Assembly (NCBI GenBank): GCA_044892525.1
Contig: CM097887.1
Coordinates: 106,432,397-106,496,396 of the forward strand
Source of the DNA: Schmidtea polychroa
Lineage: Eukaryota
Direction of reading: 5' to 3'
Length of the DNA stretch: 64,000 bases
Part shown: positions 11,188 through 64,000 of the stretch, piece by piece
Layout of the letters: each line of letters begins with the position of its first letter
How positions within the stretch are numbered: position 1 is the first letter of the stretch
Program-made: the position numbers and the translations under genes
Notes under the pieces: generated by a model
The model's input: the letters and a program-made list of their open reading frames with translations, nothing else
What the model was told of the DNA's origin: nothing
The model's database searches: none

Positions 11188-12638
<1,451 letters not shown>

Positions 12639-36240: not shown

Positions 36241-36659
36241 ATATTTATAATTAAAATTAAACAAAATTAAATAACATAACTTGTCACATATTCTTTAATC
36301 TTATTAGGATCGTAAGATGTATTCATATTCGATTGTACTATGAAAAATTAATAAATGTTAATAGTAGAAAGAGTATTACTTTTAGTGATCATACTACTCT
36401 TCGTTTCTTTGAATCTTCTAAGATGGTGTCCATGTTGTCGTACAAACATTAACAACCTACCTGGCGTTATAATGGGACATACGTAACCCGATAAGGTAGA
36501 GCCATTTATCTTGAAATATGATGATGTAAATGAAATTTAATTCAAATTTAATTTTTTTGCACATTTTTTAAAGGAATCATGAATTTTCTTAAAACAATAT
36601 TCGAATTTTTTCGAAGTTTTTAAAATAACGTATTTTCGAAAAATATCATTTCACTTTTT

Positions 36660-37025
36660 CCATGTATTGTTACCCCATCTCTGATTCGAACTGCTCCGGA
36701 TTTGAAGAATTCTTTACAATCTTCTCCTGTGATATTGACTATTTCTCTATCCATTCCTGGTAATATGATGGTTGAGTACGAGTGTTGCCCACAGTAGTAA
36801 TACTCTTCTTGTCACCATACATTCCTTTGCTGGCGTCCTGATGAAATCGGACTCTTGGTAAACGTCGTAGGTAACTTTACTTCGCACCGTCTAGAGTTTA
36901 TTTGGTGTTGCTTGCCTGCATTCTTCTAAATCTCTCAAGGAGTATTTTTCTCCCTTTGTTGATTCATCGTAATCGAATATCATAAATCCATTTGTGCATA
37001 ACATCCATATCATCATTGTCATCAT
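36660..37025 (-). pseudogene. env-like glycoprotein N-terminus resembling chuvirus/class III fusion glycoproteins
   Basis: Signal-like MMTMMIWMLCTNG, then FMIFDYDES..YSLRDLEEC..*..YDVYQESDF..AKECMVTR/EYYYCGQHSYSTII..VNITGEDCKEFFKSGAVRI; one stop, one frameshift, truncated. Confidence 0.6.
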
Positions 37026-37399
37026 TAACGAGTTAATTGATGCTTTCCTACTAGCGGGGTCTTTTATTGGTAATTCCCATTCCGATTCGTTCAACAACTT
37101 TTTCAATTTGATTTGCATTGATCTTTCCTGTTCGATTTTCCATGGTGCTTGGAAAAGTCGCTTTCATCCTCCAATATCATTACCAAGTGAAGAAAAACAG
37201 CAAATAAAAGTAAGTAATCAGGACCGAGTCAGCGATCTGATAGTGGAAATTAACAAAACAATAACAGAAAAAGCTCGAAATAATAGTGAAGATGAGTTGT
37301 TTCCCGTCATTCTCATCATGTTGATTTGCATATTTCGCATTTTTGCTACTTTCTTGAGTTTTTTATTCTCAAATATCGTTTCCTCTTCTGATTCCGTGG

Positions 37400-38950
37400 T
37401 TATTTCTTGTATCATTTCGTGCTTTAGTTGATTTGTTAAATCCAGGTTATTTTCGTCTTTATTTCTCGTTTCGGTATTTTGATCTTCATGTGTTTTCCCG
37501 ATTTTACCCTTTATCTTTTGTGAAAATATCCTTTGGATTCTTTCGTTCCCTTTGAGGACTCGTTGGGGGTTTTCCGTCTTGTTTTTGATTGTAGGTGTTG
37601 CTGGTTTTTCTGGCTCGGCTATGGGTATTCGCCGAAGGTCTTTTTCATAGTTATAACAGTACTGCTATTTTACCATTCTCATCATATTTATTTGTAATGG
37701 TTGAATTTGCCTCTGTTTGTAACGCTCTTGTTTTACTCGTTCTTCTTCTGCTTGTAATCTTTGCCACTCCTGTTGTTGAAATCCATAGTTATTCAAATTT
37801 TCCATGCTCCTCATCATTCCAATGTTTTGAGTTTGTTGCGGTGTCTGGGGTTGGCTTGGACGCTTCAGTTGTTGCATCATCGCTTCATTTGTGATATTTC
37901 TTGCATCACGTTCATCTGCTTTCCTTCGCTAAGTCTGTTGCTGGTTCTGTTGCTGGTTCCTCTCTCTAAATTCTCTTGACATATGTTCCACTTGTTCGCA
38001 GTTATAATATCCTCGTACTCCACAAATGGTTTCCATGTGACCTCTTCGTCCACACCGATTACAAGTTATTTTTTTGAAGCACTCTTTATCTCAATGTCCG
38101 GATTTCCCACGGTCGTTACCATTTCCATTTGATCGTCGTTGGCGTGGTTTAAATATCTGGTGGGCTCCAGGTATAAATTGTTTTACTTTTGGTTCGCCAC
38201 CCTCATTGTTTTCACTTCCTGTTTTTGTTGTTGTCACCGCTATTCTTCCCTCCTCTTGCATGATGTTCATTTGTGCCGAGAGATGTAATTCGCATCTGAC
38301 GGCCCAGGATATGGCCTCGTCTAACGTTTTGCACATCTGGCATCCTACAGATGCTCTTACTTACTCTCTCCTTAATCCTTCCACGAAATATCCGATCAGG
38401 TTCTCCTCTGGTAGTTTTCCGTCCATAGCTTTTCTCGCCAAACTTCTTAATTCGCTTGCGTATAACGTTACCGATTCATTGGCTCTCTGCTTTCGATTTG
38501 CCAGTTCGTTTATTGCATGGTTGAGATGGGTTTGCTTGCCCCAAATGCTGTCTTCAGAAATGTTTTTATATTTAGCCAATCACTCAAATTGATTTTCCCT
38601 ACTTTAGCTTCCAAATACACTTCTAGTGCGCTATCGCATAAAAATAGTGACATCCGTTTGCTCACTGTTTCCGCTGACCATCCACATACTTCGATATACC
38701 TCAAAATTAGTAAGAAAAGTCACAAACTTGTGTGCGTTTCCATTGAAAGGTTCTCCTCGGAATTTCTCTTTGTATTCTTCGGGTTTGACTGCTGGTTGAT
38801 TTTCGTGATTATTGGTTCGGTTATTGGTTCGGTTGCTTCTGATTCTAATACTTCGTCGATGGAAATCCTTGAACTCGTTAAACTTTTGATAGATACGGTT
38901 TGACTGTTAGTGAGTTCTCGTAGACTAGCTCGACTATGGGACCATGTACG
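37400..38950 (-). pseudogene. Ty3/Gypsy gag remnant with CCHC zinc knuckle
   Basis: GEPFNGNAHKFVTFLTNFE, CGWSAETVSKRMSLFL, RKQRANESVTLYASELRSLA, YFVEGL, TLDEAISWAVRCE, CNRCGRRGHMETIC (~38025-38065). Confidence 0.85.
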
Positions 38951-39880
38951 TTTAAGTTCGTGATCGAATAACAGAATCTCCTGATTTCCGGGTTCTGTAT
39001 TTCCTCTGCATATTGAATGACCTCTCTTATTTATCTTTACTGATCTGCTGTGGCGGATGTGATTGAGTTGGTCAACGGGTAATGGTAGTTCGAAGTTGTT
39101 ATTGGGTGGTCGAAGTGTTGATCGTCTATCCTCCGTGATTTCTGCTTTAATTCCTGACTGGAACTTCGGTTTCCTGGTTTATCTGGGATTTCTTCTGACT
39201 TTGTTTCTCTGATTTGAATTGTGCGGGTTCTGAAAGTTGCTTGTCCCAGTGACCTCTTGGGTTCTCCTTCGATACGTTGATTTATCCTTGTGCAGGTTCT
39301 GTATTGACTTTGACTTGACTTGGAATGAATATACAATTTAAAAATGAGACCGTGTTGCTGAGTCACTCACACGACTCTATCACCTTTTCCTTTGTTCACA
39401 AAAGACACCTCTTTAAGGCTCCCCATTTTGCTTTCTCCCTATGATATTTCATCCATTATTCCTCGCGGGTTATAATTAACCATAATCCCTGATTTTTAGT
39501 TGATTTTAAATTATCTATAGGGAGATTATCTATATGGTCGCAGTAATTATCTATCTTTAATCAATTTTAATACTGATAGGTCATTATCGGTAAGTTACCT
39601 ATAATTTCCCCCCATTTACCTATTCCGCTTTTTGCGCATTCCCTTCATTTAATTCTTACCTTTTCGGTTTCTACTTTGGGAGCTTTGAAAATTTCTATTC
39701 TTATTTGTTTCTGCTTTCGAAACAATCAACTAAACAAAATTTCTTAAATTCTTGTCTCATTGGTCTTTGCTTTCGAGACTATTAAAAATTCCTAACTTGT
39801 TAGTTTCTGCTTTCGAAACTTTGAAAATCCCTCTCCCGTTGATTTCGCTTTCAAATCATCAAAATTCTTATCTTATTAAT

Positions 39881-42800: not shown

Positions 42801-43219
42801 GACTTGTCTGATATTTAAAAATAAAATCGAATTTAGTACTTACTTTTAAATGTTTACACTTTGGAATCTTTGTTTTTGATATCTATGGTTTCGATATGTT
42901 TATGTTTAATTTTAAAATAAGGCCGCCGCAGCACCGGAAAGTTTTATTTTGATTTATACTTTAGTATATACAGGGAAAATTACCGAAGAAATTGAAAACA
43001 AATTTACTTATATGCTTTAACTTTTTACATAAACAGTCAGTTCATATTCTCCTTGTGTGTGGTATAAACTTTGAATAAAACTAATTATACTATACACGTG
43101 CGTGAATAGTAATAATGTAAGTAGCTTTGGTTATGCAAAGTGCAAACGATAATCGGTTTAAAATCGGATTTATACAAACGATAATCGGATTGCTCGAAAA
43201 ACCGATATTAACAACCCTA
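39881..43219 (+). mobile_element. Full-length Ac-type hAT transposon, 3339 bp
   Basis: TIR TAGGGTTGTTAA / TTAACAACCCTA; perfect 8-bp TSD TTATTAAT; subterminal CGATAATCGG repeats. Confidence 0.95.
41019..42818 (+). CDS. hAT (Ac/ZBED1-like) transposase with BED finger, 599 aa, intact
   Basis: WDNF..CKLC..HAHLRSKH, TTDIWTS, HDGASN, CAAHKLQL, TRWNS, IPATSVQSERLFS. Confidence 0.95.
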   Translation: MGFRINKSDVWDNFDKISATMAQCKLCAQQISRSGGTTAGLHAHLRSKHGGLTTSSNTQTRLTALITTQRNCPSSKQEKITAAVARLISENMLAISLVESKSFRELMAIVEPGYRPPCRQTMTARLTAMKNNLVVKMSKYIHENVKDIAITTDIWTSVTNEAYLSFTASYIDTDWNMMTPVLGTILMTQRHTQAVIADHLCSIADEWSIKEKIVACVHDGASNINHAGNLNGWFDVHCAAHKLQLCINNAMGSHVVTDHQISKCISAAARLVGHFSHSPMATGELLKRQLSMDKDKTPLKLIQHCKTRWNSVYDMFERLVELRWPVVAVLSDKNVVKLNDAKTLGMKDDYWQLMTELLPVLKALQIVTSVMSAESQPSASCVFSMLWGLVKNHLTIKEEDSDIMGEFKRDLAKNISRRFGLENNETAKNECVVASILDPMYKHLPGFPDDFKKLAYENVRHLTRQLPDCPEQPKTSRDEDNMIPPTKRSRPNHDAVMFLLGDSAAQQAPEESDFEYYVKSSWSTNSSETALEWWKHNMKLFPKTAILARKFLCIPATSVQSERLFSATGRLITKLRNRLLPDHAESLVFLNMNQDLSDI

Positions 43220-45885: not shown

Positions 45886-46361
45886 TACTCTTATACTTTT
45901 GAGTCCTGTTTGTATTTTAGCTATTTCTTACTTTACCGCTCATGAGTGTTTTCCCCTCTCCCTCCTTGCTTGAAACGCACAACGATCGCGATGATCCATT
46001 TCCACATTGGCATGGTGATCAGTGATGCCGCAGAAACTTCTCATCATTTGAAATGGTACCTCGTCCTACATTCCTCCCTTAGGTTGATCGGTTATCTCTT
46101 CCCAATTGGTTTTTTCGGTATATTGTACCGCCCGAAGGTGGCTCGGTTGTTATTGTTTGCTCTTATATCGGGACTAATTCCACATTAATTTTACGGTTCG
46201 CTTTCCTCTTTTTGATTGATATAGAAATAAAGATATACAATAACAAGAATGTTTTTAATTATTTACTTCGTTTACCTACGAATAATCAAGACACAACTAT
46301 GACATTATTATTAATTTATTTAATATAACATTACACCACATTCATTCACTTTCGTATATAG

Positions 46362-46680
46362 TTAATCGCCATAGAAAGCAAGATGAGTTTCTGCTATGGA
46401 ATATTGGCACATAGTACAACATTTTAGTTCTTTGATACATTCCTCGCAATGACTAAGGTATCCGCATGGCAAGATTAATATGCGTATGGGGCGAAGTCTG
46501 CATATGCAACAGGTTCGTAAGATGGACACTTTCTCTTTTATTTTTAGTTCGATCGTTTCGGCTAGTATGTCTAACTGCTCTCGTATTCGGTGATAATCTA
46601 GGTTTAATTCTGGGTGATATCACTGATATAGGGTTTTGTTGCTTACATTACAATCTTTATGGCCTAATCCTAATAGATAA
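46362..46680 (-). pseudogene. C-terminal IAP/RNF34-type RING finger remnant; absent from the ORF track
   Basis: ..EQLDILAETIELKIKEKVSILRTCCICRLRPIRILILPCGYLSHCEECIKELKCCTMCQYSIAETHLAFYGD*; one upstream TGA; the expected His in PCGH is Tyr. Confidence 0.75.
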
Positions 46681-46687
46681 TATGAAT

Positions 46688-48070
46688 ATCTATACCTCAT
46701 TCAAAAGGTATTGCAACGGGCTTCAAAATGAGCCATCGGTCAATAAATTCCATTGGTGGTAACTCTGTAAATTTAAATTTTAAATATGACCTTGAAAAAA
46801 TAAATATGACCTTGAAAAAATAATATTTTGAAAAATAGTAATTTGACCTTGAAAAATAATATTTTGAAAAAATAATAATATCTTTTCCAATAATGATGGT
46901 AATATGGATTTCTATACTTTATTCGAAAGGTATTGTAGTGGGCTTCAAAAAATGTTATCGATCAATAAATTGCGTTGGCGGGAAGTCTGACAAAATTGTC
47001 TTTGTCCCAGTGGGCTCATGTTTTTAAAGAAAAATAATATAACCATGAAAAATAATATTTTGAAAAAATAATAATATCTTTACCAATAATAATGATAATA
47101 TGAATATCTATACCTCATTCGAAAGGTATTGCAATGGGCTTCAAAATGAGCCATCGTTCAATAAATTCCATTGGTGGGAACTCTGTAAATTTAAATTTTA
47201 AATGACCTTGAAAAAATAAATGACCTTGAAAAAATAAATATGACCTTGAAAAAATAATATTTTGAAAAAATAATATTATCTTTACCAATAATATTGATAC
47301 TATGGATATCTATACCTCATTCGAAAGGTATTGCAATGAGCTTTAAAATAAGTCATCGATCAATAAATTCCATTGGTGGGAACTCTGTAAATTTAAATTT
47401 TAAATATGACCTTGAAAAAATAAATGACCTTGAAAAAATAAATATGACCTTGAAAAAATAATATTTTGAAAAAATAATATTATCTTTACCAATAATATTG
47501 ATACTATGGATATCTATACCTCATTCGAAAGGTATTGCAATGAGCTTTAAAATAAGTCATCGATCAATAAATTCCATTGGCGGGAACGCTCAAAATTTAA
47601 ATTTTAAAATATGACCTTGAAAAAATAATATTTTGAAAAAATAGTAATATGACCTTGAAAAATAATATTTTGAAAAAATAATAATATCTTTTCCAATTAT
47701 GATGGTAATATGGATTTCTATTCTTCATTCGAAAGGTATTGTAGTGGGTTTCAAAAAATATTATCGATCAATAAATTCCGTTGGCGGAAACTCTGACAAA
47801 ATTGTATTTGTCCCGGCGGGCCCATGTTTTTTAAAAGAATAATGTAACCTTGAAAATAAATGACCTTAAAAATTAATGACCTTGAAAATATAAACGACCT
47901 TGAAAAAATAGTAATATGACCTTGAAAAAATAATATTTTGAAAAAATAATAATATCTTTACAAATAATATTGATAATATAGATATCTATACCTCATTCAA
48001 AAGGTATTGCAATGAGCTTCAAGATAAGCCATCGTTGAAGAATTTCCGTTGGCGGGAAGTCTGACAAATT
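46688..48070. repeat. Satellite-like tandem array, about 7 units of ~200-270 bp with internal ATGACCTTGAAAAAATAA subrepeats
   Basis: Recurring TCTATACCTCATTCGAAAGGTATTG...ATAAATTCC.TTGG.GGGAA; reverse-complement fragments at ~58960-59340 and ~61840-62220. Confidence 0.9.
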
Positions 48071-48109
48071 TATAGTCTTAGCGGGCTCATATCTGGGAAT
48101 ATATATAAT

Positions 48110-48530
48110 CCAGACTAAGCACCCAAAAATCATGTTGGGTTGCCGACTACGTCGACACTCCTTTATCATCGACTAGGCAACAAAATAGATTTCGTCGACC
48201 GCTAGCCAGACACCCCATGATCGTTCTTACGTCATGACACCCATGATCTGCATCATGTTGGTGATGTGCCATGACGGCGGAGCGTAGTGAAGCAGGTGAG
48301 TCCCTACTACTGACTACTCGTTCACCACGTTTCGACTTCTCTATTTCCTGACAGCCGATAGAAGGTCTTACATCGCATGCGCTGAAATTCAGCAAAATGT
48401 GATGTGCCATGACGGCGGAGCGTAGTGAAGCAGGTGAGCCCCTACTACTGACTACTCGTTCACCACGTTTCGACTTCTCTATTTCCTGACAGCCTGACAG
48501 CATGCGCTGAAATTCAGCAAAATCTAACTC
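48110..48530 (-). mobile_element. LTR-like segment with an internal ~95-bp duplication
   Basis: Homologous to 5680-5870; GTGATGTGCCATGACGG..CTGACAGCC occurs at ~48260 and ~48400. Confidence 0.55.
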
Positions 48531-48796
48531 CCTTGCATTGATTTACTCGACTTAAAATAATCATTTATCAAAAGCGAATAACACGGATAATGAAACAAAT
48601 TTATAATTAGGCACACAATATTTGAAGACAGCGTCAGTGATATTTACACCTAAACATAGGCCTAAGACAACGTACAGTTTCATGACATGAAATCCACAGA
48701 CTAGACATTTGTGGTCGTGAGTGGGTGCGACTGTTCAAAAAGTAGATGGAGACGCGCCGGCAAAAATTTTGTGTAAAATTAAAAAAATGAAAATAT

Positions 48797-49734
48797 ATAT
48801 CGTGTCTAAATTTTTGATCACACAACCTTAATTCACAGTCTAATGTTCCGATAACATTGATAGGTTGTCCGTTTGCTCCCGATGCAACAGTTAATGTCGG
48901 CACTATTGCTTGTAATTCTTTTTCATTTAATAAATTTGCTTCGATCAATGTCAAATCTGATCCTGAATCAATAATGGCATGTACCGTATGCCTGTTAACT
49001 TTTAATTTGATCGTAGGTTTATGAGTCTTTTTACCCATATTGACCATTAATATTGTTGAGATTCCTCTAATGTTATCTCTGAACTTTTGTTGATCATCAC
49101 TATCTTTGTCATTTTCCGATTTTATTTCATCTTTATACTCCTCCTTTAGCCGTTCCAGCGTGCTAAATGGATATTTCGGTACCATCTCCAATACTGATGT
49201 ACCCAAGGGTGGCATTGTCTCGAAATTCATCTGATACGTTGGGTATGAGGTAGATGGTAGTATATCTGTATTTGTTCTAAACTCGAACCTCTTTAGCATT
49301 TCTTCTTCAACTCGTTCTGGTATTATCTTTTTTCTACCCTCGTATGGTGACAAATAATTCACAGGCCATTCCTGCCGTTTCCTCCTTTTTGCTTTAACAG
49401 GGTACTGTTGTAAAGTACTATTTTCAAAATTTTGAAATTTCGGCTTTTTGTTGTCTGGTTTTATTGAGGTGTTGTCTGAGGTCTCATAGGCCTCTAGGTT
49501 ACCTCTCTCGTCAGAATTGTCATCGTCTCGATGACTAGGTTCATACATTATTAACTGATGTTTCTTTATAGTTTGTCTCTTCATTATCTTAATCTCTTTA
49601 TTATGATGATGAAATACTGCAAAATCTGCACAAACTGGACACATTCCTAGTAGCAACTTCCACGACCATCCCCCGATCTTGAAGATACTATAGGTGGAAA
49701 ATAATTGCGATATGATTATTTTCAATATCATCAC
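48797..49734 (-). pseudogene. Truncated gag-tail/aspartic protease ORF (inverted copy)
   Basis: AIIDSGSDLTLI; identical to 54735-55672, then joined to noncoding sequence. Confidence 0.85.
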
Positions 49735-50886
49735 AATTGCATATATACCTGAACATCCGGCTACAAAAATACCAAAGCTTGTAAATCTACCCCAGATTTT
49801 TCGTATTACATTTTACTATTAAAAAATTAAAATTTAAAATAGTATAATTTATAAATCCACAGACTAGACATTTGTGGTCGTGAGTGGGCGCGACTGTTCA
49901 CAAAGTAGATGGAGACGTGCCGGCAAAAATTTTGTGTAAAATTAAAAAAATGAAAATAAAAGAAGCATTTATTTAAAGTTTTTTGCAAGAATTTAAGCTT
50001 ATTCGAATGAATAATCTTTTATAAAATCTAGGCATTAATCTGTAAATCATATCGAGAAATCAGAAAAAATAGTTTATTAAAAAATGAATAATATAATTAA
50101 GCCATTTTATTTTTCAAAATCTCTAAAACTCCTTCTGCATTTATTCTGTTTTTATCATCGTAATCAAATATTGCTGACAACAACTCTGCAAAAAAGCAAT
50201 TTTTAATAATTTCTGATAACTTATTTTCTCCTTCTGGATCGTTTTTTAAAGAATTTGTTGATTTATCTATTAGGGGAACTCCGATTAATTTGAAAATAGC
50301 TTTAATGGAATCTTCTTTAAATAACGGCTCTTGGAGAATCATAAACGCAATAACGCATCCCGCACTCCATACATCAATGGCTGTCCCGTAACTCTTATTT
50401 GCGCAAAGCAATTCTGGAGCCCTATAAAATCTGATTTAATTTAATAAACTATTATAAATAACAAAATATTCATACTTGGTGCCGATTGAAGTTATATTCA
50501 AACAATCAGGCTTCATTTGGCGCATATGGAAAAAGTTTGAAATCTTTAATCTTAATTCTGCCATATCAACGAAAATGTCTTTTGGATTGATATTGCAGTG
50601 GGCGATATTCAAATTATGCAAGTATTGCAGTCCGGACATCAATTGTCCGGATAATATTTTCATGTGATTGTCTTCTAATTTCAGGTCTTTCAACTTGAAT
50701 CTTTCAATCATACTCAATAAATTTTCAGGCATATATTCAAATAGGATGAGCATCACTTTTGGCGATGGAACCGCATATTTCATCGAAATTAGATTTGGAT
50801 TACAAAGTAATCCCAGGGATTTCAGTTTGTTAAATTCAGTTGATTTAACAATCATTACATTCATATTAGTTGGAAGTAATCCTATT
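48797..50886 (-). repeat. Left arm of a 2090-bp near-perfect inverted repeat (partner 53583-55672)
   Basis: Identical kinase and gag-protease ORF translations on opposite strands; breakpoints located by eye. Confidence 0.95.
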
Positions 50887-51074
50887 AGTGAACTCGTCGT
50901 CCTATTTTCTTTGATTTGACAGTTGGTAAAGTTAATATTGAAATTCCCAATGTTTATCAGAACCTCTTTCATAGTAGGTAATAATAATAAAGCCTTTTTT
51001 GTTTTAAAGTGGTCTGGTTCGTATTGACTAAAACAGTAGCTTTGAACAGATTTGGTATCCATATCACCTGTCAT
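50097..51074 (-). CDS. GSK3/CMGC-like pseudokinase, 310 aa spliced; exons 51074-50476 and 50430-50097
   Basis: 45-nt GT-AG intron joins SIGTK|FYRAPELL; LFEYMPENL, QLMSGLQYLH, IDVWSAGCV; HRD replaced by HCN and DFG by NFF. Confidence 0.8.
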
Positions 51075-52765
51075 TTTATAGGTTTACAAATGTTATTAAA
51101 AGACATTTTTTATTTTTAAACGAATTTTTTGAAAATTTTTTGAAATTTGTTTTTTAAAAAAATTTTTAACTGAAATTTTTTAAATCAAAAAAAATTATAA
51201 ATTTCAATTTAGAAAATGGATTTGTAATTTAATCTCCAATATTAGTGACAATTGTAATTTGAAATAATTTTACAATTTGATAATTGATATTTAATTATAT
51301 CAATTTCTATTTTAAATTTTGTAAAATTCAATTTATACTATCATTTTTTTTTGAAATTTAATGAGGTAAAAAATGGATTTTTTTATTTTTTATTGGTTTA
51401 AAAATAAGTTCATTAAAATTTAAAATAGTATAATTTATTTGAATATTAAAATATCGGAACCAATAAATATATTGCCAGTAAAATATTTTATCTTTTTCAT
51501 CATTGATTTATTACTAAAGGAAGATTTATATCCTTATCAATTTTATTTATTATTTTTGTAGATCATTGGTCAATATTTTTTTATTTAAAATAAGCATTTG
51601 TGCTGAAAACTTGTGTTAAAATATTATTGGTCCATAATCTGATTGATATTAAATATTTATTTGTACCTACCTAAATTTTATATTTATTTATTCGTTATAG
51701 ATGTTAGAGTCGAAGCATAAATTTAGACAATATATATATTCTCTAAAATACATAAATATCATTCTAGTATGCCATGTTGCGATACTGAATATTTTAGCTA
51801 GATATATTATGAGTCACCTTTTGAGGGACGGTTTTTTAGGATATATAGATTATATAATTCCCGCCGAAGTACGCGGAGCGTATCAAAAGATAAAGAATGG
51901 ATGTAAAATGTTCCAAATGATCCGATTCGAATTGTGCATCCTGGTCAGTCATCATGGAGGTTGGAATTCCATAACGTGAGAACCAGGTGGATACTAAAGC
52001 TTATGCGACCGTCTGAGCGGTAATGTCAGGGATAAGAACGGCCTCAAACCAGCGTGTTTTCCGATCAATCGTATATTCAAGTTAAAAAATGTAATTCATA
52101 ATTCATAATTTTTCCTAAAAAAGACCCCTTAAACCGTATATTGACCCAATATCATGCTAATAGTCTTAATCTAAATCATCAATAAACGCATAATCAAATC
52201 AAAAATAGAATTTGTAAATTTTATAACTGACCCCCTCAAAATCATATAGTCATCAACTATTACTTAAATATACTAAACTAGACTATCTTAATACATATTT
52301 AACTTGTAAATATAAAATTTATAAATTTTCTAATTTACCCCCCTATTAATCATATAGCCACCGACTATTAGACCAATCAAAATCGAGTGGTCATATTTTA
52401 TTAAATCTAATTTAAATTAATTGTTTATTGTTCATTTTGTCTTTCTATTTTAGTTTTTCATGTTACTATTTTTAATTTTTTAAATATTTTATTAAATTGG
52501 TAACTTTGTGCTATTTTCTACTTTTATCTATATTCTGCTATTTCCTCATTCTTTTAATTCCATTTCAATCCTATGTTTTATTCTCCTTACTTATCTCGTT
52601 GTTGCCTTTATTTTATATTTATTTTTAAATTATTTTTGATTTTTAAAGCACTTTTGTTGTTACTTATTGTTATTCTCTTTTCATTTACTTACGCTATTTT
52701 ATTTTTTTTGTTTTAACCTTACTTCTAAGCCCAACAAGAGTATTAACATGTAATTTCAACTGTTT

Positions 52766-53059
52766 TTAAGGAACCTTTGCCAGTTCTGACACCAATTGTG
52801 GAGACATACAACTGATTCGAATAAAGATTTTATTCAAAAGAACATTGAAATAAATAATTGATATATCTACTCCAATAGTCAATGTACCAACGAAAGCACC
52901 GATACTTGATCTGGCGATTGTATGGAGATTGTTGAAGATCTTGACCATCATCAGAGAGATCATAGCTAATAAAACAAAGGCTTCAGTTTCTTGAATGCCT
53001 GGCATATTTGCTTTATTGATTCTGACGAGATTTAATGATTTGGAAGTTGAATGTTTCAT
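52766..53059 (-). CDS. Hypothetical hydrophobic protein, 97 aa, in the spacer of the inverted repeat
   Basis: ORF track; 2-3 hydrophobic stretches; locally higher GC. Confidence 0.25.
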   Translation of the reverse strand: MKHSTSKSLNLVRINKANMPGIQETEAFVLLAMISLMMVKIFNNLHTIARSSIGAFVGTLTIGVDISIIYFNVLLNKIFIRISCMSPQLVSELAKVP

Positions 53060-53582
53060 TGTTTTTTATATTGAATTTAATTTTGGAAAAAAAGTGAAGA
53101 TTATTTAAACAATGATTTTAATTTAATTAATTTAATAATATATTTTAAATTCAATTATTAAATTGATAAAAGTTGCAGTCAGAGGCACTATAGAGTTCAA
53201 TTAATTAATTAAAATATAATAAAAATAATAATAGTAATAATAATAATAATAATTCAACTAACAACCGAATACTTAAAACACATAAAAATGTTGGGCTAGA
53301 ACCGAAGGTTGAGAGTTTGTTTTAATGGATAGAAAATACATAACATAAAAACCGCATCAAGTTGAATTAAAATCTATAATCATACGTCAAATAATACAAA
53401 ATAAATTATACAACATATTGAGGATAAATAAAACACGTATAATAAAATAAAGAAACGCAAGAAGTTGCAATCACCAACACAGTTTAGAGAAAAATAACGC
53501 ATTCTCAAAATCTGCCCACTAGAAAAAATAAAAGATTAATAAATAAATTAATAATTGATAATAAATTAATTAATAATACGAA

Positions 53583-54372
53583 AATAGGATTACTTCCAAC
53601 AAATATGAATGTAATGATTGTTAAATCAACTGAATTTAACAAACTGAAATCCCTGGGATTACTTTGTAATCCAAATCTAATTTCGATGAAATATGCGGTT
53701 CCATCGCCAAAAGTGATGCTCATCCTATTTGAATATATGCCTGAAAATTTATTGAGTATGATTGAAAGATTCAAGTTGAAAGACCTGAAATTAGAAGACA
53801 ATCACATGAAAATATTATCCGGACAATTGATGTCCGGACTGCAATACTTGCATAATTTGAATATCGCCCACTGCAATATCAATCCAAAAGACATTTTCGT
53901 TGATATGGCAGAATTAAGATTAAAGATTTCAAACTTTTTCCATATGCGCCAAATGAAGCCTGATTGTTTGAATATAACTTCAATCGGCACCAAGTATGAA
54001 TATTTTGTTATTTATAATAGTTTATTAAATTAAATCAGATTTTATAGGGCTCCAGAATTGCTTTGCGCAAACAAGAGTTACGGGACAGCCATTGATGTAT
54101 GGAGTGCGGGATGCGTTATTGCGTTTATGATTCTCCAAGAGCCGTTATTTAAAGAAGATTCCATTAAAGCTATTTTCAAATTAATCGGAGTTCCCCTAAT
54201 AGATAAATCAACAAATTCTTTAAAAAACGATCCAGAAGGAGAAAATAAGTTATCAGAAATTATTAAAAATTGCTTTTTTGCAGAGTTGTTGTCAGCAATA
54301 TTTGATTACGATGATAAAAACAGAATAAATGCAGAAGGAGTTTTAGAGATTTTGAAAAATAAAATGGCTTAA
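53583..54372 (+). pseudogene. 5'-truncated second copy of the pseudokinase (intron 53994-54038)
   Basis: Matches the minus copy from IGLLPTNM onward; the first ~63 codons are missing. Confidence 0.85.
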
Positions 54373-54734
54373 TTATATTATTCATTTTTTAATAAACTAT
54401 TTTTTCTGATTTCTCGATATGATTTACAGATTAATGCCTAGATTTTATAAAAGATTATTCATTCGAATAAGCTTAAATTCTTGCAAAAAACTTTAAATAA
54501 ATGCTTCTTTTATTTTCATTTTTTTAATTTTACACAAAATTTTTGCCGGCACGTCTCCATCTACTTTGTGAACAGTCGCGCCCACTCACGACCACAAATG
54601 TCTAGTCTATGGATTTATAAATTATACTATTTTAAATTTTAATTTTTTAATAGTAAAATGTAATACGAAAAATCTGGGGTAGATTTACAAGCTTTGGTAT
54701 TTTTGTAGCCGGATGTTCAGGTATATATGCAATT

Positions 54735-56965
54735 GTGATGATATTGAAAATAATCATATCGCAATTATTTTCCACCTATAGTATCTTCAAGATCGGGGGA
54801 TGGTCGTGGAAGTTGCTACTAGGAATGTGTCCAGTTTGTGCAGATTTTGCAGTATTTCATCATCATAATAAAGAGATTAAGATAATGAAGAGACAAACTA
54901 TAAAGAAACATCAGTTAATAATGTATGAACCTAGTCATCGAGACGATGACAATTCTGACGAGAGAGGTAACCTAGAGGCCTATGAGACCTCAGACAACAC
55001 CTCAATAAAACCAGACAACAAAAAGCCGAAATTTCAAAATTTTGAAAATAGTACTTTACAACAGTACCCTGTTAAAGCAAAAAGGAGGAAACGGCAGGAA
55101 TGGCCTGTGAATTATTTGTCACCATACGAGGGTAGAAAAAAGATAATACCAGAACGAGTTGAAGAAGAAATGCTAAAGAGGTTCGAGTTTAGAACAAATA
55201 CAGATATACTACCATCTACCTCATACCCAACGTATCAGATGAATTTCGAGACAATGCCACCCTTGGGTACATCAGTATTGGAGATGGTACCGAAATATCC
55301 ATTTAGCACGCTGGAACGGCTAAAGGAGGAGTATAAAGATGAAATAAAATCGGAAAATGACAAAGATAGTGATGATCAACAAAAGTTCAGAGATAACATT
55401 AGAGGAATCTCAACAATATTAATGGTCAATATGGGTAAAAAGACTCATAAACCTACGATCAAATTAAAAGTTAACAGGCATACGGTACATGCCATTATTG
55501 ATTCAGGATCAGATTTGACATTGATCGAAGCAAATTTATTAAATGAAAAAGAATTACAAGCAATAGTGCCGACATTAACTGTTGCATCGGGAGCAAACGG
55601 ACAACCTATCAATGTTATCGGAACATTAGACTGTGAATTAAGGTTGTGTGATCAAAAATTTAGACACGATATCAAGGTCACTAGACAATGTATGGCAGAA
55701 TGTATCGTGGGAATGGATAAATTGAAAAAGTTAAAAGATATTGTATTCGATTGTGCAACAGGTGAACTAGTGAAAATGACGGGTAGAAAGCGGAAAACCT
55801 ACAGTGTGGATGTAGTGTTTTTGGATAGAACGGTGACAATACCACCGAGGACCGAAACAGTTTGTTTTGTGGCAACACACCAAGAGGTGTAAGGAGATGT
55901 TATTTTCGAACCGAGTGAGCAGACTTTTTCCAGACTTTAAAAGACAATTCATGGTGATGACCGATGCATGCACAAGAGGTATAGGTGCGGTTTTGGGACA
56001 GAAAGACGAAATTGGCGATGAATACGCAGTAGCTTATGCAAGTCGTGGATTGAAGCCACACGAAAAAAGTTATGCTGTAATAGAATTGGAAGCATTAGGA
56101 TTAGTATTTGCAGTGGAAAAATTTAGTCATTACCTATGGGGCCGAAAGGTAATTTTCTATACAGATCATAGACCATTGCAATGGCTGTTAAAACATAGAG
56201 ACGAAGCATCAAAGTTAGTATGATGGGCATTGAGATTACAGCCATATAATATCGAAATTGTATATCGTAAAGGTAAAGCTAATGGTAATACAGATGCATT
56301 ATCATGAATGGAGCAAGAGCCCGAATTAGAAGATATAAAGGAATTAGAAGGGACAATCTTCATGCTAACAAGAGAGGCTAACACTTTGAGCGATTTAGTA
56401 GAAGCACAGAAAAATGATGATGAAATCAATAAGATCAGACAAGCTATAGAAGCAAAGGCCATATCAAATGAACTTCAGAAATATTGGAGAAACATAAAGA
56501 TAAATTCATATTGGAAGAAGGTCGAATTAAATACGTGGAATCAAGAGATAATGTAATATTAGTGCCCAAGAAATACAGAGAATCACTATTATTACAATAC
56601 CACGATGGAGCACTGGGAGGATATCTCTCAGCTAGCATACACTGTCAAGATTAAAAATGAAATAATTCTGGCCAGATATAAAAGATGATGTTAAAAAGTG
56701 GTGTCAATCATGTAAGATATGTATAACCAGAAGGAACACAGGCAGGAAACCACATGTCCCATTAAAACCAATGTCAGTACCGTCCTCGCCAATGGAGATG
56801 ACTGCTATGGACGTACTAAGGCCCTTTAAAGAATCAAAGATGGGAAATAAATTTATCATAGTATTTTGCGACTACTTAACGAAGTGGCCCGAAGCATTCC
56901 CAATTCCGAATCATAAGGCAGACACAATTGCCAGAATCTTTGTAGAACAAATTGTATTTAGATAT
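54735..56965 (+). mobile_element. Ty3/Gypsy pol derivative lacking RT: protease, RNase H, partial integrase
   Basis: IIDSGSD (protease); at ~55915 jumps to PDFKRQFMVMTDAC..AYASRGLKPHEKSY..YTDHRPL (RNase H); YHDG..FWPDIKDDVKKWCQSCKIC, AMDVLRP, FCDYLTKWPEAFP (integrase N-half); stops present. Confidence 0.9.
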
Positions 56966-57332
56966 GCTTACCGACAGAGAAAGGCTAGATTAGTGAGTAT
57001 TCCTGGTTGTAAAGGAATAAAGGCTTTGGATTGGTTTAGTATCAGAAAGGTAGCGAGTGTAAACCAGCCCCGCATAAATAAATTAATTAATAATTGTAGA
57101 GTTCAAAATACGTTAAACGGGACAACGAGAGATAAAACCTCAACTTGGTTATTCTTAATCATGATAGGGGGAGTAATTTGCATGATTTTAATTTTGATAT
57201 TAACCACCCTATGGATGCTTAGATTAAATATGCGGGATATTCGTTATTGGGAAATTATTTACGAAACCGAGGTATAGGGGGAAAGTCTCACCATATACTA
57301 GGAAGTGTAAATATATATTTTATCTATTTTAT

Positions 57333-59011
57333 ATGTTATTTATATTAGTATGTAAACTAATGTGGGCTCAAATGAGCATCGGTAAAATCAGACATCAGCG
57401 TATGTCGACTTTGGTTACCCTGCGAGGGTCTATCACGAAAGTGATAAAAGCTGTTAATTATTTTATTTTTAGAAAAATGAATTATAACAGAGAACCAAAA
57501 CCACCAGTCAAAGCAAATCGACGACACCCATTGGCAACGTACAATTCCCAGACTCGAGTTGAAACTGAAGTATATAGTACATACAAAGAAGAGTACGTAT
57601 ACAGGTTCATCGGAACTACGGTCGCAGCAAAAATGAATCACCTCACCTCAAACTATTGGTATTATCCCAGGAGAGTGGATATTCCAAACGATTTCAAATT
57701 CGCAGGAGGGCCTCGAAAGCAAATGATGATAACGGTTATAAATAACCAAGGTAGATTAAAATTGGCGGAACTATGTAGAGATTATGGTTCATGTCCGAAA
57801 TTGGAAAACATTTGGATCCATGCGATCAATAGGCCATTCACTGTGTTTATGGCGGGATTAGAGTTACCTGTTGAATTAGAAAAACAGTGTACCCTGGAGA
57901 TATACCACGCTGATGGACGAGAACGGAATATTATGATCCAGGCAGCAGCAGTTGATACCATAATCGCAGTAGAAATCTTGGATTTCAGGAAGCCATACTC
58001 TATAGTTAGCAAAAACGAGCCAACTTGGATTTACAATGTAAATAAAGTTGATATACAGCAGTGTAAATCATTTGTGAGGAAGAAGTTAACCAAAGCCGAG
58101 GAGGACGAGGCTACAATTTTCATATCGGCAGGTTTTGCCAAATCCCGAATCGAACTGAAGGAGACAATTATCCAAATCGCAATTATGGATATGAGGGGAA
58201 ATAATTTATTGAGTGCGGTAGTGACTCCCAGAGACCCTGTAAAACACTACCAAACGCACCAATACAAGTTAAAGGAACCTGATATTAGAGGAAACCTCGA
58301 CGAAGATGATTGTTATCCTCTGATAAGATCTGCGATAAGAAAATACTTGTAGGTATTTTGCTTAAAGATCTGATCTCGGTAGCCAATCTACCAGTGCAGC
58401 GGATACTGAGTATTCGTGACCTTTCTGCAAATAAACTATTGGAAACCAGAGGAGTCCCAATGATTCATGGTCATTACAGATTGGGATTCCCGACGAAAAC
58501 TTTCCTGCGTACGGTTCCCGGAGAACCAAGGAATTTAGTGGTCACCAATGAGGCACTGGCGATACGTGCGGTTTATTTACATCTCAGAAACGAATGGTTA
58601 GACCATATCACGAAACCCCAGGAGGAATTCATTTCCGTAACTACAGCAGCGATAGTTGAGCAGGAAATGACGCAAAAGAAGAGATTACCCGAGCAACCAT
58701 CTACATCAGGGCAACCCAAGCCTAAGAGAAAATCACCTGTGGACTTACCACCGCCTCCAGCTATATCTATTGGAGAAGAAGATGAATATGAAACATGCGT
58801 TAGCGAAACGGAGACAGCAAAATCACCCAAACAATCATCGGGAGCTGCCTATCAGCCAAAGGATAAATCGGAAAATGCGGTCAGAAAAGAAAATCCAGAA
58901 GGAGGCAAGGTGAAAAAGATGTTAAAGAAAATATTACCCATAAAAAGACAATTTTTTCAAATTTGTCAGACTTCCCGCCAACGGAAATTCTTCAACGATG
59001 TCTTATTTTAA
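57333..59011 (+). pseudogene. Accessory ORF with a DEDDh (REX4/ISG20-like) exonuclease-fold region, split by a 1-nt frameshift near 58340; copy 1
   Basis: QIAIMDMRGNNLLSAVVTPRDPVKHYQT..IRSAI / KILVGILLKDL..IRDLS..EALAIRAVY; acidic catalytic motifs not found. Confidence 0.6.
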
Positions 59012-59690
59012 AGCTCATTGCAATACCTTTCGAATGTGGTATAGAAATCCATATTATCAATATTATTGGTAAAGATATTATTTTTTCAAAATATTATTTT
59101 TTCAAGGTCATTTATATTTTCAAGGTCATTTATATTTTCAAGGTCATTCATATTTTCAAGGTCATATTTTAAAATTTAAATTTTTAGAGTTCCCACCAAT
59201 GGAATTTATTGGCCGATGGCTAATTTTGAAGCCCACTGCAATACCTTTCGAATGACGTATAGATATTCATATTATCATTATTATTAATAAAGATATTATT
59301 TTTTCAAAATATTATTTTTCAAGGTCGTTTATTTTTTCAAGGTTCAAAATCTGTTCAAAGCTACTGTTTTAGTCAATACGAACCAGATGAAATAATCGGT
59401 TCCATCGCCAAAAGTGATGCTCATCCTATTTGAATATATGCCTGAAAGATTGAAAGATTCAAGTTGAAAGACCTGAAATTAGAAGACAATCACAAGAAAA
59501 TATTATCCGGACAATTGATGTCCGGACTGCAATACTTGCATAATTTGAATATCGCCCACTGCAATATCAATCCAAAAGACATTTTCGATGATATGGCAGA
59601 ATTAAGATTAAAGATTTCAAACTTTGGAGGACGAATAATAAAATTGCGCTTATCGTCATATTAGAAAATGACCAGCGAGTCGAGAGATTA

Positions 59691-60158
59691 GTGCTCAACC
59701 ATGCTTATCTAAGTAGAAGATGGACAATCAAACCAGATACCGTGACAAAGGCGAACATTTCGTATTTGGAATTTACGGAGAGAACCGGTTGGTATACAAT
59801 ATATCAAGAAATAGTAAATCTAATACCTCCCACAAAAGGAGAACTAACTGGCAAAGAAGGAAAGGCTAGATTAGTGAGTATTCCTGGTTGTAAAGGAATA
59901 AAGGCTTTGGATTGGTTTAGTATCAGAAAGGTAGCGAGTGTAAACCAGCCCCGCATAAATAAATTAATTAATAATTGTAGAGTTCAAAATACGTTAAACG
60001 GGACAACGAGAGATAAAACCTCAACTTGGTTATTCTTAATCATGATAGGGGGAGTAATTTGCATGATTTTAATTTTGATATTAACCACCCTATGGATGCT
60101 TAGATTAAATATGCGGGATATTCGTTATTGGGAAATTATTTACGAAACCGAGGTATAG
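59691..60158 (+). CDS. TM-anchored protein fragment (155 aa); further copies at 62572-63039 and, partially, 56980-57277
   Basis: C-terminal hydrophobic helix WLFLIMIGGVICMILILILTTLWML with a short tail; NIS and NGT sequons. Confidence 0.5.
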   Translation: MLNHAYLSRRWTIKPDTVTKANISYLEFTERTGWYTIYQEIVNLIPPTKGELTGKEGKARLVSIPGCKGIKALDWFSIRKVASVNQPRINKLINNCRVQNTLNGTTRDKTSTWLFLIMIGGVICMILILILTTLWMLRLNMRDIRYWEIIYETEV

Positions 60159-60213
60159 GGGGAAAGTCTCACCATATACTAGGAAGTGTAAATATATATT
60201 TTATCTATTTTAT

Positions 60214-61892
60214 ATGTTATTTATATTAGTATGTAAACTAATGTGGGCTCAAATGAGCATCGGTAAAATCAGACATCAGCGTATGTCGACTTTGGTTACC
60301 CTGCGAGGGTCTATCACGAAAGTGATAAAAGCTGTTAATTATTTTATTTTTAGAAAAATGAATTATAACAGAGAACCAAAACCACCAGTCAAAGCAAATC
60401 GACGACACCCATTGGCAACGTACAATTCCCAGACTCGAGTTGAAACTGAAGTATATAGTACATACAAAGAAGAGTACGTATACAGGTTCATCGGAACTAC
60501 GGTCGCAGCAAAAATGAATCACCTCACCTCAAACTATTGGTATTATCCCAGGAGAGTGGATATTCCAAACGATTTCAAATTCGCAGGAGGGCCTCGAAAG
60601 CAAATGATGATAACGGTTATAAATAACCAAGGTAGATTAAAATTGGCGGAACTATGTAGAGATTATGGTTCATGTCCGAAATTGGAAAACATTTGGATCC
60701 ATGCGATCAATAGGCCATTCACTGTGTTTATGGCGGGATTAGAGTTACCTGTTGAATTAGAAAAACAGTGTACCCTGGAGATATACCACGCTGATGGACG
60801 AGAACGGAATATTATGATCCAGGCAGCAGCAGTTGATACCATAATCGCAGTAGAAATCTTGGATTTCAGGAAGCCATACTCTATAGTTAGCAAAAACGAG
60901 CCAACTTGGATTTACAATGTAAATAAAGTTGATATACAGCAGTGTAAATCATTTGTGAGGAAGAAGTTAACCAAAGCCGAGGAGGACGAGGCTACAATTT
61001 TCATATCGGCAGGTTTTGCCAAATCCCGAATCGAACTGAAGGAGACAATTATCCAAATCGCAATTATGGATATGAGGGGAAATAATTTATTGAGTGCGGT
61101 AGTGACTCCCAGAGACCCTGTAAAACACTACCAAACGCACCAATACAAGTTAAAGGAACCTGATATTAGAGGAAACCTCGACGAAGATGATTGTTATCCT
61201 CTGATAAGATCTGCGATAAGAAAATACTTGTAGGTATTTTGCTTAAAGATCTGATCTCGGTAGCCAATCTACCAGTGCAGCGGATACTGAGTATTCGTGA
61301 CCTTTCTGCAAATAAACTATTGGAAACCAGAGGAGTCCCAATGATTCATGGTCATTACAGATTGGGATTCCCGACGAAAACTTTCCTGCGTACGGTTCCC
61401 GGAGAACCAAGGAATTTAGTGGTCACCAATGAGGCACTGGCGATACGTGCGGTTTATTTACATCTCAGAAACGAATGGTTAGACCATATCACGAAACCCC
61501 AGGAGGAATTCATTTCCGTAACTACAGCAGCGATAGTTGAGCAGGAAATGACGCAAAAGAAGAGATTACCCGAGCAACCATCTACATCAGGGCAACCCAA
61601 GCCTAAGAGAAAATCACCTGTGGACTTACCACCGCCTCCAGCTATATCTATTGGAGAAGAAGATGAATATGAAACATGCGTTAGCGAAACGGAGACAGCA
61701 AAATCACCCAAACAATCATCGGGAGCTGCCTATCAGCCAAAGGATAAATCGGAAAATGCGGTCAGAAAAGAAAATCCAGAAGGAGGCAAGGTGAAAAAGA
61801 TGTTAAAGAAAATATTACCCATAAAAAGACAATTTTTTCAAATTTGTCAGACTTCCCGCCAACGGAAATTCTTCAACGATGTCTTATTTTAA
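60214..61892 (+). pseudogene. Exonuclease-fold accessory ORF, copy 2 (same frameshift); copy 3 starts ~63095 and runs off the window
   Basis: Identical translation to copy 1. Confidence 0.6.
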
Positions 61893-64000
61893 AGCTCATT
61901 GCAATACCTTTCGAATGTGGTATAGAAATCCATATTATCAATATTATTGGTAAAGATATTATTTTTTCAAAATATTATTTTTTCAAGGTCATTTATATTT
62001 TCAAGGTCATTTATATTTTTAAGGTCATTCATATTTTCAAGGTCATATTTTAAAATTTAAATTTTTAGAGTTCCCACCAATGGAATTTATTGGCCGATGG
62101 CTAATTTTGAAGCCCACTGCAATACCTTTCGAATGACGTATAGATATTCATATTATCATTATTATTAATAAAGATATTATTTTTTCAAAATATTATTTTT
62201 CAAGGTCGTTTATTTTTTCAAGGTTCAAAATCTGTTCAAAGCTACTGTTTTAGTCAATACGAACCAGATGAAATAATCGGTTCCATCGCCAAAAGTGATG
62301 CTCATCCTATTTGAATATATGCCTGAAAGATTGAAAGATTCAAGTTGAAAGACCTGAAATTAGAAGACAATCACAAGAAAATATTATCCGGACAATTGAT
62401 GTCCGGACTGCAATACTTGCATAATTTGAATATCGCCCACTGCAATATCAATCCAAAAGACATTTTCGATGATATGGCAGAATTAAGATTAAAGATTTCA
62501 AACTTTGGAGGACGAATAATAAAATTGCGCTTATCGTCATATTAGAAAATGACCAGCGAGTCGAGAGATTAGTGCTCAACCATGCTTATCTAAGTAGAAG
62601 ATGGACAATCAAACCAGATACCGTGACAAAGGCGAACATTTCGTATTTGGAATTTACGGAGAGAACCGGTTGGTATACAATATATCAAGAAATAGTAAAT
62701 CTAATACCTCCCACAAAAGGAGAACTAACTGGCAAAGAAGGAAAGGCTAGATTAGTGAGTATTCCTGGTTGTAAAGGAATAAAGGCTTTGGATTGGTTTA
62801 GTATCAGAAAGGTAGCGAGTGTAAACCAGCCCCGCATAAATAAATTAATTAATAATTGTAGAGTTCAAAATACGTTAAACGGGACAACGAGAGATAAAAC
62901 CTCAACTTGGTTATTCTTAATCATGATAGGGGGAGTAATTTGCATGATTTTAATTTTGATATTAACCACCCTATGGATGCTTAGATTAAATATGCGGGAT
63001 ATTCGTTATTGGGAAATTATTTACGAAACCGAGGTATAGGGGGAAAGTCTCACCATATACTAGGAAGTGTAAATATATATTTTATCTATTTTATATGTTA
63101 TTTATATTAGTATGTAAACTAATGTGGGCTCAAATGAGCATCGGTAAAATCAGACATCAGCGTATGTCGACTTTGGTTACCCTGCGAGGGTCTATCACGA
63201 AAGTGATAAAAGCTGTTAATTATTTTATTTTTAGAAAAATGAATTATAACAGAGAACCAAAACCACCAGTCAAAGCAAATCGACGACACCCATTGGCAAC
63301 GTACAATTCCCAGACTCGAGTTGAAACTGAAGTATATAGTACATACAAAGAAGAGTACGTATACAGGTTCATCGGAACTACGGTCGCAGCAAAAATGAAT
63401 CACCTCACCTCAAACTATTGGTATTATCCCAGGAGAGTGGATATTCCAAACGATTTCAAATTCGCAGGAGGGCCTCGAAAGCAAATGATGATAACGGTTA
63501 TAAATAACCAAGGTAGATTAAAATTGGCGGAACTATGTAGAGATTATGGTTCATGTCCGAAATTGGAAAACATTTGGATCCATGCGATCAATAGGCCATT
63601 CACTGTGTTTATGGCGGGATTAGAGTTACCTGTTGAATTAGAAAAACAGTGTACCCTGGAGATATACCACGCTGATGGACGAGAACGGAATATTATGATC
63701 CAGGCAGCAGCAGTTGATACCATAATCGCAGTAGAAATCTTGGATTTCAGGAAGCCATACTCTATAGTTAGCAAAAACGAGCCAACTTGGATTTACAATG
63801 TAAATAAAGTTGATATACAGCAGTGTAAATCATTTGTGAGGAAGAAGTTAACCAAAGCCGAGGAGGACGAGGCTACAATTTTCATATCGGCAGGTTTTGC
63901 CAAATCCCGAATCGAACTGAAGGAGACAATTATCCAAATCGCAATTATGGATATGAGGGGAAATAATTTATTGAGTGCGGTAGTGACTCCCAGAGACCCT

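Follow-up and report, generated by a model that had tools for sequence, protein, structure and literature searches.

The DNA analysed here is a 64,000-nucleotide stretch of the Schmidtea polychroa genome (C3:106432397-106496396, hereafter the window), whose positions 45,900-64,000 combine retroelement pieces with host-like coding sequences. The initial annotation had read this region as one giant Gypsy-associated element without reverse transcriptase (RT), carrying a pseudokinase, a DEDDh-fold protein devoid of its acidic residues, a RING remnant and a transmembrane (TM)-anchored open reading frame (ORF) as decoys directed against GSK3/Wnt signalling, RNA surveillance and ubiquitination. Our results point instead to a patchwork formed at the DNA level from three sources: a deleted copy of a Burro-like element (family 1), what remains of the 5' end of a giant Burro-type element (family 2), and a GSK3-like pseudokinase gene of host type. 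Break repair with template switching likely joined them, with tandem amplification afterwards; we assign this explanation as a whole a probability of about 0.8. The locus itself is a dead rearrangement, and the weight of the analysis lies on a family-level result: the second ORF (ORF2) of family 1 encodes a predicted exonuclease-fold domain that lacks catalytic residues and is maintained by purifying selection. In the following, plain numbers denote window positions, and the prefixes C1, C2 and C3 denote coordinates in the S. polychroa genome.

Sources of the rearranged region

A genome search with the DEDDh ORF of the window (135 of 967 candidates scored) gave 137 matches, 70 of which are units of the tandem array and 67 of which are dispersed rows. 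Four of the six dispersed regions examined first contain 15.3-kb elements with long terminal repeats (LTRs) of ~1,078 bp, a 3,516-codon ORF1 and a 775-codon ORF2; the other two represent a subfamily at 82-85% identity, one with both LTRs and one 5'-truncated. Apart from the truncated copy, the LTR pairs are 99.8-100% identical (five of six regions), and all five copies with both LTRs are flanked by 4-bp target-site duplications (TSDs). The elements end in TG..CA and possess a polypurine tract and a primer-binding site, the latter presumably resembling tRNA-Trp. ORF1 comprises gag with CCHC knuckles, a putative ubiquitin-like unit, a probable Bcl-2-like unit, env, protease (PR), RT, RNase H (RH), integrase (IN) and a post-integrase segment, with the order PR-RT-RH-IN given by Pfam matches and env lying in frame between gag and protease (PF24664, E 2e-82). 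The matches of the ubiquitin-like unit (PF00240, E 0.003, below the cut-off) and of the Bcl-2-like unit (BOK and FPV039 at E 0.05-0.07, ranked below two coiled-coil matches) are weak, and Pfam gave no BIR, MATH or ankyrin match in family-1 ORF1. The spacer between PR and RT, where Burro has a dUTPase-like unit, is conserved, with a ratio of nonsynonymous to synonymous substitution rates (dN/dS) of 0.05, and has no Pfam match. The segment after IN consists of a hydrophobic leader, a predicted FN3-like domain, whose neighbours in the atlas are FN3 membrane proteins (similarity 0.90-0.92, with a recognition score short of the reliable level), and a TM anchor. Across RT-RH, family 1 and the giant family-2 element share 43% identity. 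Family 1 is an env-bearing, Burro-like Ty3/Gypsy LTR element, and at 15.3 kb it is not the giant source that had been envisaged.

Between the two family-1 subfamilies (C1:3045445-3060746 versus C1:138384136-138399218), dS ranges from 0.11-0.22 in gag, RT and RH to ~2 in ORF2. Since dS differs along the element, the subfamilies are recombinant, having exchanged modules. dN/dS amounts to 0.040 for env, 0.040 for PR, 0.014 for IN and 0.21 for the post-integrase segment. Elsewhere, three family-1 ORF2 copies follow each other at a period of 14,218 bp (C2:100872287-100901580), an arrangement consistent with tandem elements sharing LTRs. Troyka was ruled out as the identity of the family, as it has CG ends, a 3-bp TSD and no env according to excerpts of PMC12440569.

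An ORF scan combined with Pfam confirmed the protease, RNase H and integrase (zinc finger) pieces between 45,900 and 64,000, together with two kinase half-domains and, through PF24664, the C-terminal end of an env protein of the Monjiviricetes fusion type. Two TM-bearing frames correspond to the TM-anchored ORF described initially, namely the env C-terminus and the anchor that ends the post-integrase part of ORF1. Compared with intact family-1 elements, the window copy shows 94-96% identity, begins inside env and lacks 1,233 bp including all of RT as well as 1,485 bp from integrase onwards. The lack of RT is a local deletion, because intact family-1 copies encode this enzyme. Neither the window nor the examined array ends contain a family-1 LTR or RT, and no family-1 TSD surrounds the local copy, which is most likely inert. 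Self-comparison further revealed an inverted duplication of 2,090 bp (48797-50886 versus 53583-55672, with three differences) and a tandem array with a period of 2,881 bp that reaches the window end, both of which the initial annotation had overlooked.

The pseudokinase was described correctly in its sequence features: it has HCN for HRD and NFF for DFG, its Gly-rich loop is also degenerate, and it reads open over 310 aa across a 45-nt GT-AG intron (50431-50475). Its nearest named matches are GSK3 kinases, by a narrow margin over CDKs, and its intron occupies the same codon and phase as that of two host genes with intact HRD and DFG motifs (C1:23.21 Mb and C2:187.37 Mb), whereas the CDK-like genes examined have their intron a few codons earlier. 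The gene at C2:187.37 Mb matches GSK3 at E 1e-35; a PDB sequence search with the paralogue at C1:23.21 Mb gave no match at a cut of E 1e-22, and its GSK3 label is based on gene structure and motifs. Exon 1 is 22-27% identical to these host paralogues; protein searches found no close relative of the kinase, and a word-based search with exon 1 was blank. A search with exon 2 (104 of 104 candidates scored) located close copies only in two duplicate C3 blocks, at C1:169.23 Mb and at C1:267.93 Mb. The copy at C1:169.228 Mb is broken and intron-bearing, with no family-1 DNA within ~30 kb. In the intronless copy at C1:267.926 Mb, 20 bases of exon 1 (17 matching) are joined exactly to exon 2, and no poly(A) was seen there; the kinase was therefore probably once transcribed and spliced. 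Because it shares its intron with host GSK3-like genes, has an intronless copy elsewhere and is absent from 10 of 10 dispersed family-1 copies, the kinase is a host-type, two-exon GSK3-like gene and not element cargo, so that the element carries no GSK3/Wnt decoy. Planarians use GSK3/Wnt to set polarity, and this genome holds a young GSK3-like pseudokinase that was probably spliced at one time. Two additional observations concern kinase loci: a non-LTR-like element with Ulp1 protease and RT matches lies ~2.4 kb upstream of the intronless copy (C1:267.92 Mb), and a divergent two-exon GSK3-like kinase with intact catalytic motifs (L132:6455-7584) is a candidate for the nearest active paralogue.

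The RING remnant (46365-46583, minus strand; C3HC4, PF13920 at 31 bits, cut-off 27) is present as announced, with its His ligand replaced by Tyr and its ORF broken upstream; an intact CGH ring is kept in two of five homologous loci. The surrounding ~800 bp constitute a repeat with 46 genome matches (40 of 336 candidates scored), which, in two of the five regions examined, directly precedes the gag of another element. One copy of that element, family 2, has a 4,732-codon ORF1, an intact 167-aa RING ORF and a downstream RING-TRAF/MATH ORF. The window's own family-2 gag (36632-39637) shares the minus strand with the RING remnant, two DNA-transposase-like insertions lying between them (by eye), and the same 10 of 10 dispersed family-1 copies lack the RING. 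It is thus the leader ORF of a separate giant Burro-type element. Another piece of the family-2 LTR region, with a short ORF of its own, lies at 5678-6943 and is homologous to 48189-48494.

Where these pieces meet, there are microhomologies of 2-5 bp and short inserts templated nearby; between the kinase 3' untranslated region and env lie a 106-bp copy of 48690-48795 and 27 bp taken from the kinase upstream region. Repair or replication template switching in DNA would join the pieces, with tandem amplification following, and switching at the DNA level is favoured because the intron is retained, an inverted duplication is present and satellite DNA lies inside the array unit. Short microhomologies, together with the fact that the kinase was retro-copied once, would also be expected of a mosaic made in RNA, in which RT switched templates between co-packaged element RNA and kinase RNA to give a non-autonomous chimera. 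However, both local kinase copies keep the intron, the kinase upstream region is included along with the 2-kb inverted duplication and the satellite, the inserts copy adjacent genomic DNA, family-1 LTR ends are missing and a chimera between LTRs has not been seen so far, making an RNA-level origin very unlikely. We consider it highly improbable that the juxtaposition is an assembly chimera: it is true that an N run closes the array and that 54 kb of sequence (window 1-53,700) has a second copy at a distance of 0.56 Mb (99.0-99.9% identity), but both blocks, and likewise 70 array units with small variants of their own and lengths of ~2,864-2,881 bp, show these junctions.

As for the single giant RT-less element with its decoy kit, all pieces do lie within 18 kb, kinase fragments are found inside the amplified unit, and host-like domains have been described in Burro elements (PMC6431247). 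Of the four cargo ORFs, two are indeed element genes: ORF2 and the TM segment after integrase sit within LTR pairs and evolve under purifying selection (dN/dS of 0.03 for the dead DEDDh domain and 0.21 for the segment). The kinase and the RING, by contrast, are found in 0 of 10 family-1 copies; the former has a host-type sense-strand intron, the latter belongs to another family on the opposite strand, no family-1 LTR or TSD encloses the local copy, and the intact copies have RT. For the kinase and the RING, this is the outcome that the initial annotation itself had named as a refutation, namely cargo ORFs that do not co-occur within intact elements. We therefore give next to no credence to this model and find no support for the pieces forming one complex.

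Some points weigh against the patchwork explanation. Its junctions are those of the assembly and, with an N run closing the first array, the number of copies and the duplication of the 54-kb block could in part reflect assembly artefacts. Likewise, selection on the kinase, which had been suggested from its intact frame and splice sites, finds weak evidence in the comparison with the broken copy (dN/dS 0.50, confidence interval (CI) 0.32-0.84, 264 codons), and against the intronless copy the CI includes 1 (0.60, CI 0.29-1.54, 110 codons); a three-way polarisation of the changes covered 74 codons with 7 three-state sites, too few to be informative.

ORF2 and its possible role

ORF2, which is separate from ORF1, is predicted to combine a cupin-like domain with an ISG20/REXO4-like DEDDh domain. 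The initial annotation rightly noted that the acidic residues of the latter are gone: in family 1, the catalytic D-x-E and H..D are replaced by S-x-G/R and L..E, while 12 of 14 aligned S. polychroa copies keep D-E-H-D, the two exceptions being the family-1 rows. An ORF2 profile matches ISG20L2 (E 3e-12) and ISG20 (E 2e-9), and its similarity to RNase_T clusters in the atlas is 0.94. Word-based protein searches found no relative of ORF2; a profile search did recover the family. A model built from the 14-row alignment (mean predicted local distance difference test (pLDDT) score 66; 31 for a single-sequence model) superimposes on human ISG20 with a Z-score of 15.3 and a root-mean-square deviation of 3.2 over 156 aligned residues, and Exuperantia is matched at Z 9.6. 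Residues 1-150 tie among AlkB and cupin folds (Z 8.4-9.2). An assignment of this N-terminal domain as Tpt1/PARP-like was dropped, its fold matching the cupin/AlkB type.

Between the two family-1 subfamilies, the dead DEDDh domain has a dN of 0.063 and a dS of ~2.0, giving a dN/dS of 0.031 (CI 0.013-0.069; 179 of 185 codons), which indicates purifying selection about as strong as that on protease and env. The domain is more conserved than its cupin-like partner (dN 0.063 versus 0.146).

ORFs related to ORF2 are abundant in the genome, with at least 150 identified (150 of 1,147 candidates scored), and 10 of 12 sampled loci have pol or env of the same type alongside. A genome search with PF00929 gave 10 matches, comprising one host-type exonuclease gene and nine homologous element-type ORFs, in which the catalytic motifs are visible where the frame is intact. 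A second abundant dead family has an ORF2 of 761-762 codons with 32% identity, and its LTRs are 98-100% identical in the two copies examined. A 3,899-codon ORF without an RT match is inserted near a sister-family copy (C1:56.013-56.025 Mb). Beyond S. polychroa, an external profile search listed 150 cluster-representative matches; 16 were dropped as too short, and 148 rows, including the 14 from S. polychroa, were aligned. All four catalytic columns are covered in 136 of the 148 rows, of which 111 are active and 25 dead. In a quick maximum-likelihood tree of 74 rows, from which three dead multi-repeat proteins (which fall elsewhere), near-duplicates, one multi-stretch row and most cellular rows were left out, the remaining 22 dead rows are set apart by a branch with a support of 97-100. 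In these alignments, ORF2 of the sister families keeps its active site, whereas the family-1 lineage has lost it. Genomic context was seen for one external row, the metagenome locus L182, in a search with a single protein query. In this related element, PR-RT-RH-IN with ankyrins and a weak FN3 match precedes two ORF2 paralogues, the first of them dead and the second active. Within L182:1-9920, pol runs into a second aspartic-protease domain, ankyrin repeats, the weak FN3 match and a TM end.

Several aspects call for caution regarding a selected role of the dead domain. The dS of ORF2 is near saturation (~2) compared with 0.19 for RT, so that in these recombinant subfamilies the ratio is a rough one; the dead group has long branches in a tree obtained by quick maximum likelihood only; and the cupin-like domain could carry the selected function.

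Mechanistically, a captured exonuclease gene may have been duplicated, with one copy specialising into ORF2. At slightly less than even odds, our preferred proposal is that ORF2 binds RNA without cutting it and acts as a chaperone or shield for the RNA of the element, because dead DEDD proteins retain RNA binding (excerpts of PMC5408684) and Exuperantia is among the fold matches. Alternatively, dead ORF2 might be a counter-defence decoy that binds a host RNA-surveillance partner, such as piRNA (PIWI-interacting RNA) or RNA interference (RNAi) 3'-end processing factors or an ISG20/REXO4-type complex, or that pairs with its active paralogue, thereby blocking or steering it. The strong constraint on the dead domain, the adjoining dead and active paralogues in L182, the abundance and recent insertion of both dead families and the targeting of Burro transcripts by PIWI (excerpts of PMC8532177) would all suit such a decoy. 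Nevertheless, we regard it as unlikely, given that the known dead DEDD proteins Maelstrom and EXD1 act via RNA binding (excerpts of PMC5408684), that Exuperantia is found among the fold matches and that families having the active form alone are abundant as well. What these two proposals leave falls to a structural role of ORF2 or a role carried by its cupin-like domain, which is somewhat doubtful.

It is tempting to speculate that a captured ISG20/REXO4-like exonuclease was duplicated in Burro-type proviruses and that one copy became a pseudonuclease with anti-silencing activity, shielding the ends of element RNA or sequestering the host piRNA/RNAi trimming machinery in stem cells; we regard this as unlikely. 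If true, the pseudonuclease and the post-integrase FN3-like membrane protein would together give the retroelement an accessory system akin to the counter-defence genes of viruses. To our knowledge, element-encoded suppressors of silencing have rarely been identified in animals. Planarians allow RNAi against such a gene, and the idea is therefore directly testable; natural active/dead pairs provide ready controls.

Layout of the window

Table 1. Features of the window referred to in the text.
Feature	Position	Strand	Evidence
Decayed gag region of giant Burro-type element (family 2), upstream partner of RING leader; outside 45,900-64,000	36632..39637	-	blastn 69-73% and tblastn to 4,732-aa ORF1 at C2:136.26-136.28 Mb
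Family-2 giant element 5' leader with RING ORF remnant (46365-46583)	45889..46672	-	46 genome matches; PF13920
AT-rich satellite of ~204 bp, ~7 copies, inserted into family-2 leader	46673..48090	.	Self-comparison
Further family-2 5' sequence (likely LTR region), multi-copy	48098..48795	-	
Family-1 env C-terminus/TM and protease start, inverted duplicate	48797..49812	-	96% to intact copy C1:3.05 Mb; PF24664, PF00077
Locally templated 106-bp insert, copy of 48690-48795, joined to kinase 3' untranslated region	49853..49958	.	97% identity
GSK3-like pseudokinase gene, 310 aa; exon 1 51074-50476, intron 50475-50431, exon 2 50430-50097	50097..51074	-	PF00069
Spacer of unrelated repeats; high-copy repeat 52795-53190; decayed integrase-like stretch ~51870-52070	51455..53582	.	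Integrase-like stretch by eye
Second pseudokinase copy, 5'-truncated, inside inverted duplication 53583-55672	53583..54372	+	
Family-1 ORF1 fragment: env C-terminus with TM, protease, start of PR-RT spacer	54657..55922	+	96% to intact copies; Pfam
Family-1 RNase H and 5' half of integrase, with stops; 1,233-bp deletion (RT) before, 1,485-bp deletion after	55927..56966	+	
Family-1 ORF1 end (TM anchor) and 5' two thirds of ORF2 (cupin-like, dead ISG20-like)	56979..58948	+	94% to intact copies
Tandem array of 2,881 bp; unit of satellite (58956-59343), kinase fragments (59344-59625), ORF1 C-terminus and ORF2 5' part	56979..64000	+	

The leader flanks 45889-46618 and 48098-48398 are near-contiguous at C3:28.32 Mb. 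The first array contains 12 units up to the N run and the duplicate block at C3:107.05-107.23 Mb another 58; units 1 and 2 differ by one base, and the DEDDh ORF in the window units is truncated, with a frameshift near 58,320. Farther upstream, Polinton/adintovirus-like ORFs (integrase-like, capsid-like) occupy 1-2400, with similar ORFs near C1:169.20 Mb and C3:137.71 Mb, and a long alpha-tubulin-like exon of a host gene lies among repeats at 11463-12635 (by eye). DNA-transposase-like ORFs are located at 24024-26351, 40974-42815 (an open, 614-codon hAT-like frame) and 44033-45880, two of which split the family-2 element.

Relation to known systems

Cargo interfering with apoptosis and ubiquitination in Burro is already in print: an in-frame env and ubiquitin-like, Bcl-2-like, BIR, MATH and RING-type cargo have been described, and meddling with both processes was proposed (PMC6431247), while excerpts of PMC13465017, citing Lee et al. 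2026, report RING/BIR cargo in Burro1. Relative to the literature searched, the new part is the family-level dead-exonuclease ORF2 under selection. That literature did not describe an ISG20-like ORF or a dead exonuclease ORF for any Burro-like element, although the primary Burro papers (Grohme 2018, Lee 2026), their supplements and Repbase, which lie outside it, may describe ORF2; nor did it contain a report of a planarian GSK3 pseudokinase. The latter protein resembles the GSK3 family in its nearest named match and in the single intron site common to two host GSK3-like genes, and differs from it in its degenerate Gly-rich loop, HRD and DFG motifs.

The family-1 polyprotein, with gag, CCHC knuckles, a putative ubiquitin-like unit, a probable Bcl-2-like unit and a mononegavirus-type env between gag and protease, is like that of the planarian Burro/GYPSM1 elements (PMC6431247), and family 2 likewise has TRAF/MATH and RING accessory ORFs as well as ankyrin-like text in ORF1. 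Unlike Burro, which is giant (over 25-30 kb) and has BIR, MATH and ankyrin units, family 1 measures 15.3 kb and lacks those Pfam matches; moreover, its ORF2 joins a cupin-like to an ISG20-like domain and a membrane segment follows its integrase, two features that section 7 of PMC6431247 does not mention.

Among LTR elements, those of rotifers are known to carry exonuclease ORFs, which are intact and of the DEDDy type (excerpts of PMC5408684). As in the bdelloid elements Juno and Vesta, whose ORF3 is of this type, a 3'-5' exonuclease-family ORF follows pol in a Gypsy-like element; however, according to the same excerpts, the rotifer proteins are RNase D-like with intact catalytic residues, whereas the S. 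polychroa domain is DEDDh, fused to a cupin-like domain and, in one lineage, still under selection after the loss of its catalytic residues. Its predicted fold is that of ISG20, ISG20L2 and REXO4, and the loss of catalytic residues from a conserved fold recalls Exuperantia, Maelstrom and EXD1. Unlike these host proteins, ORF2 is encoded by a mobile element rather than by a host gene.

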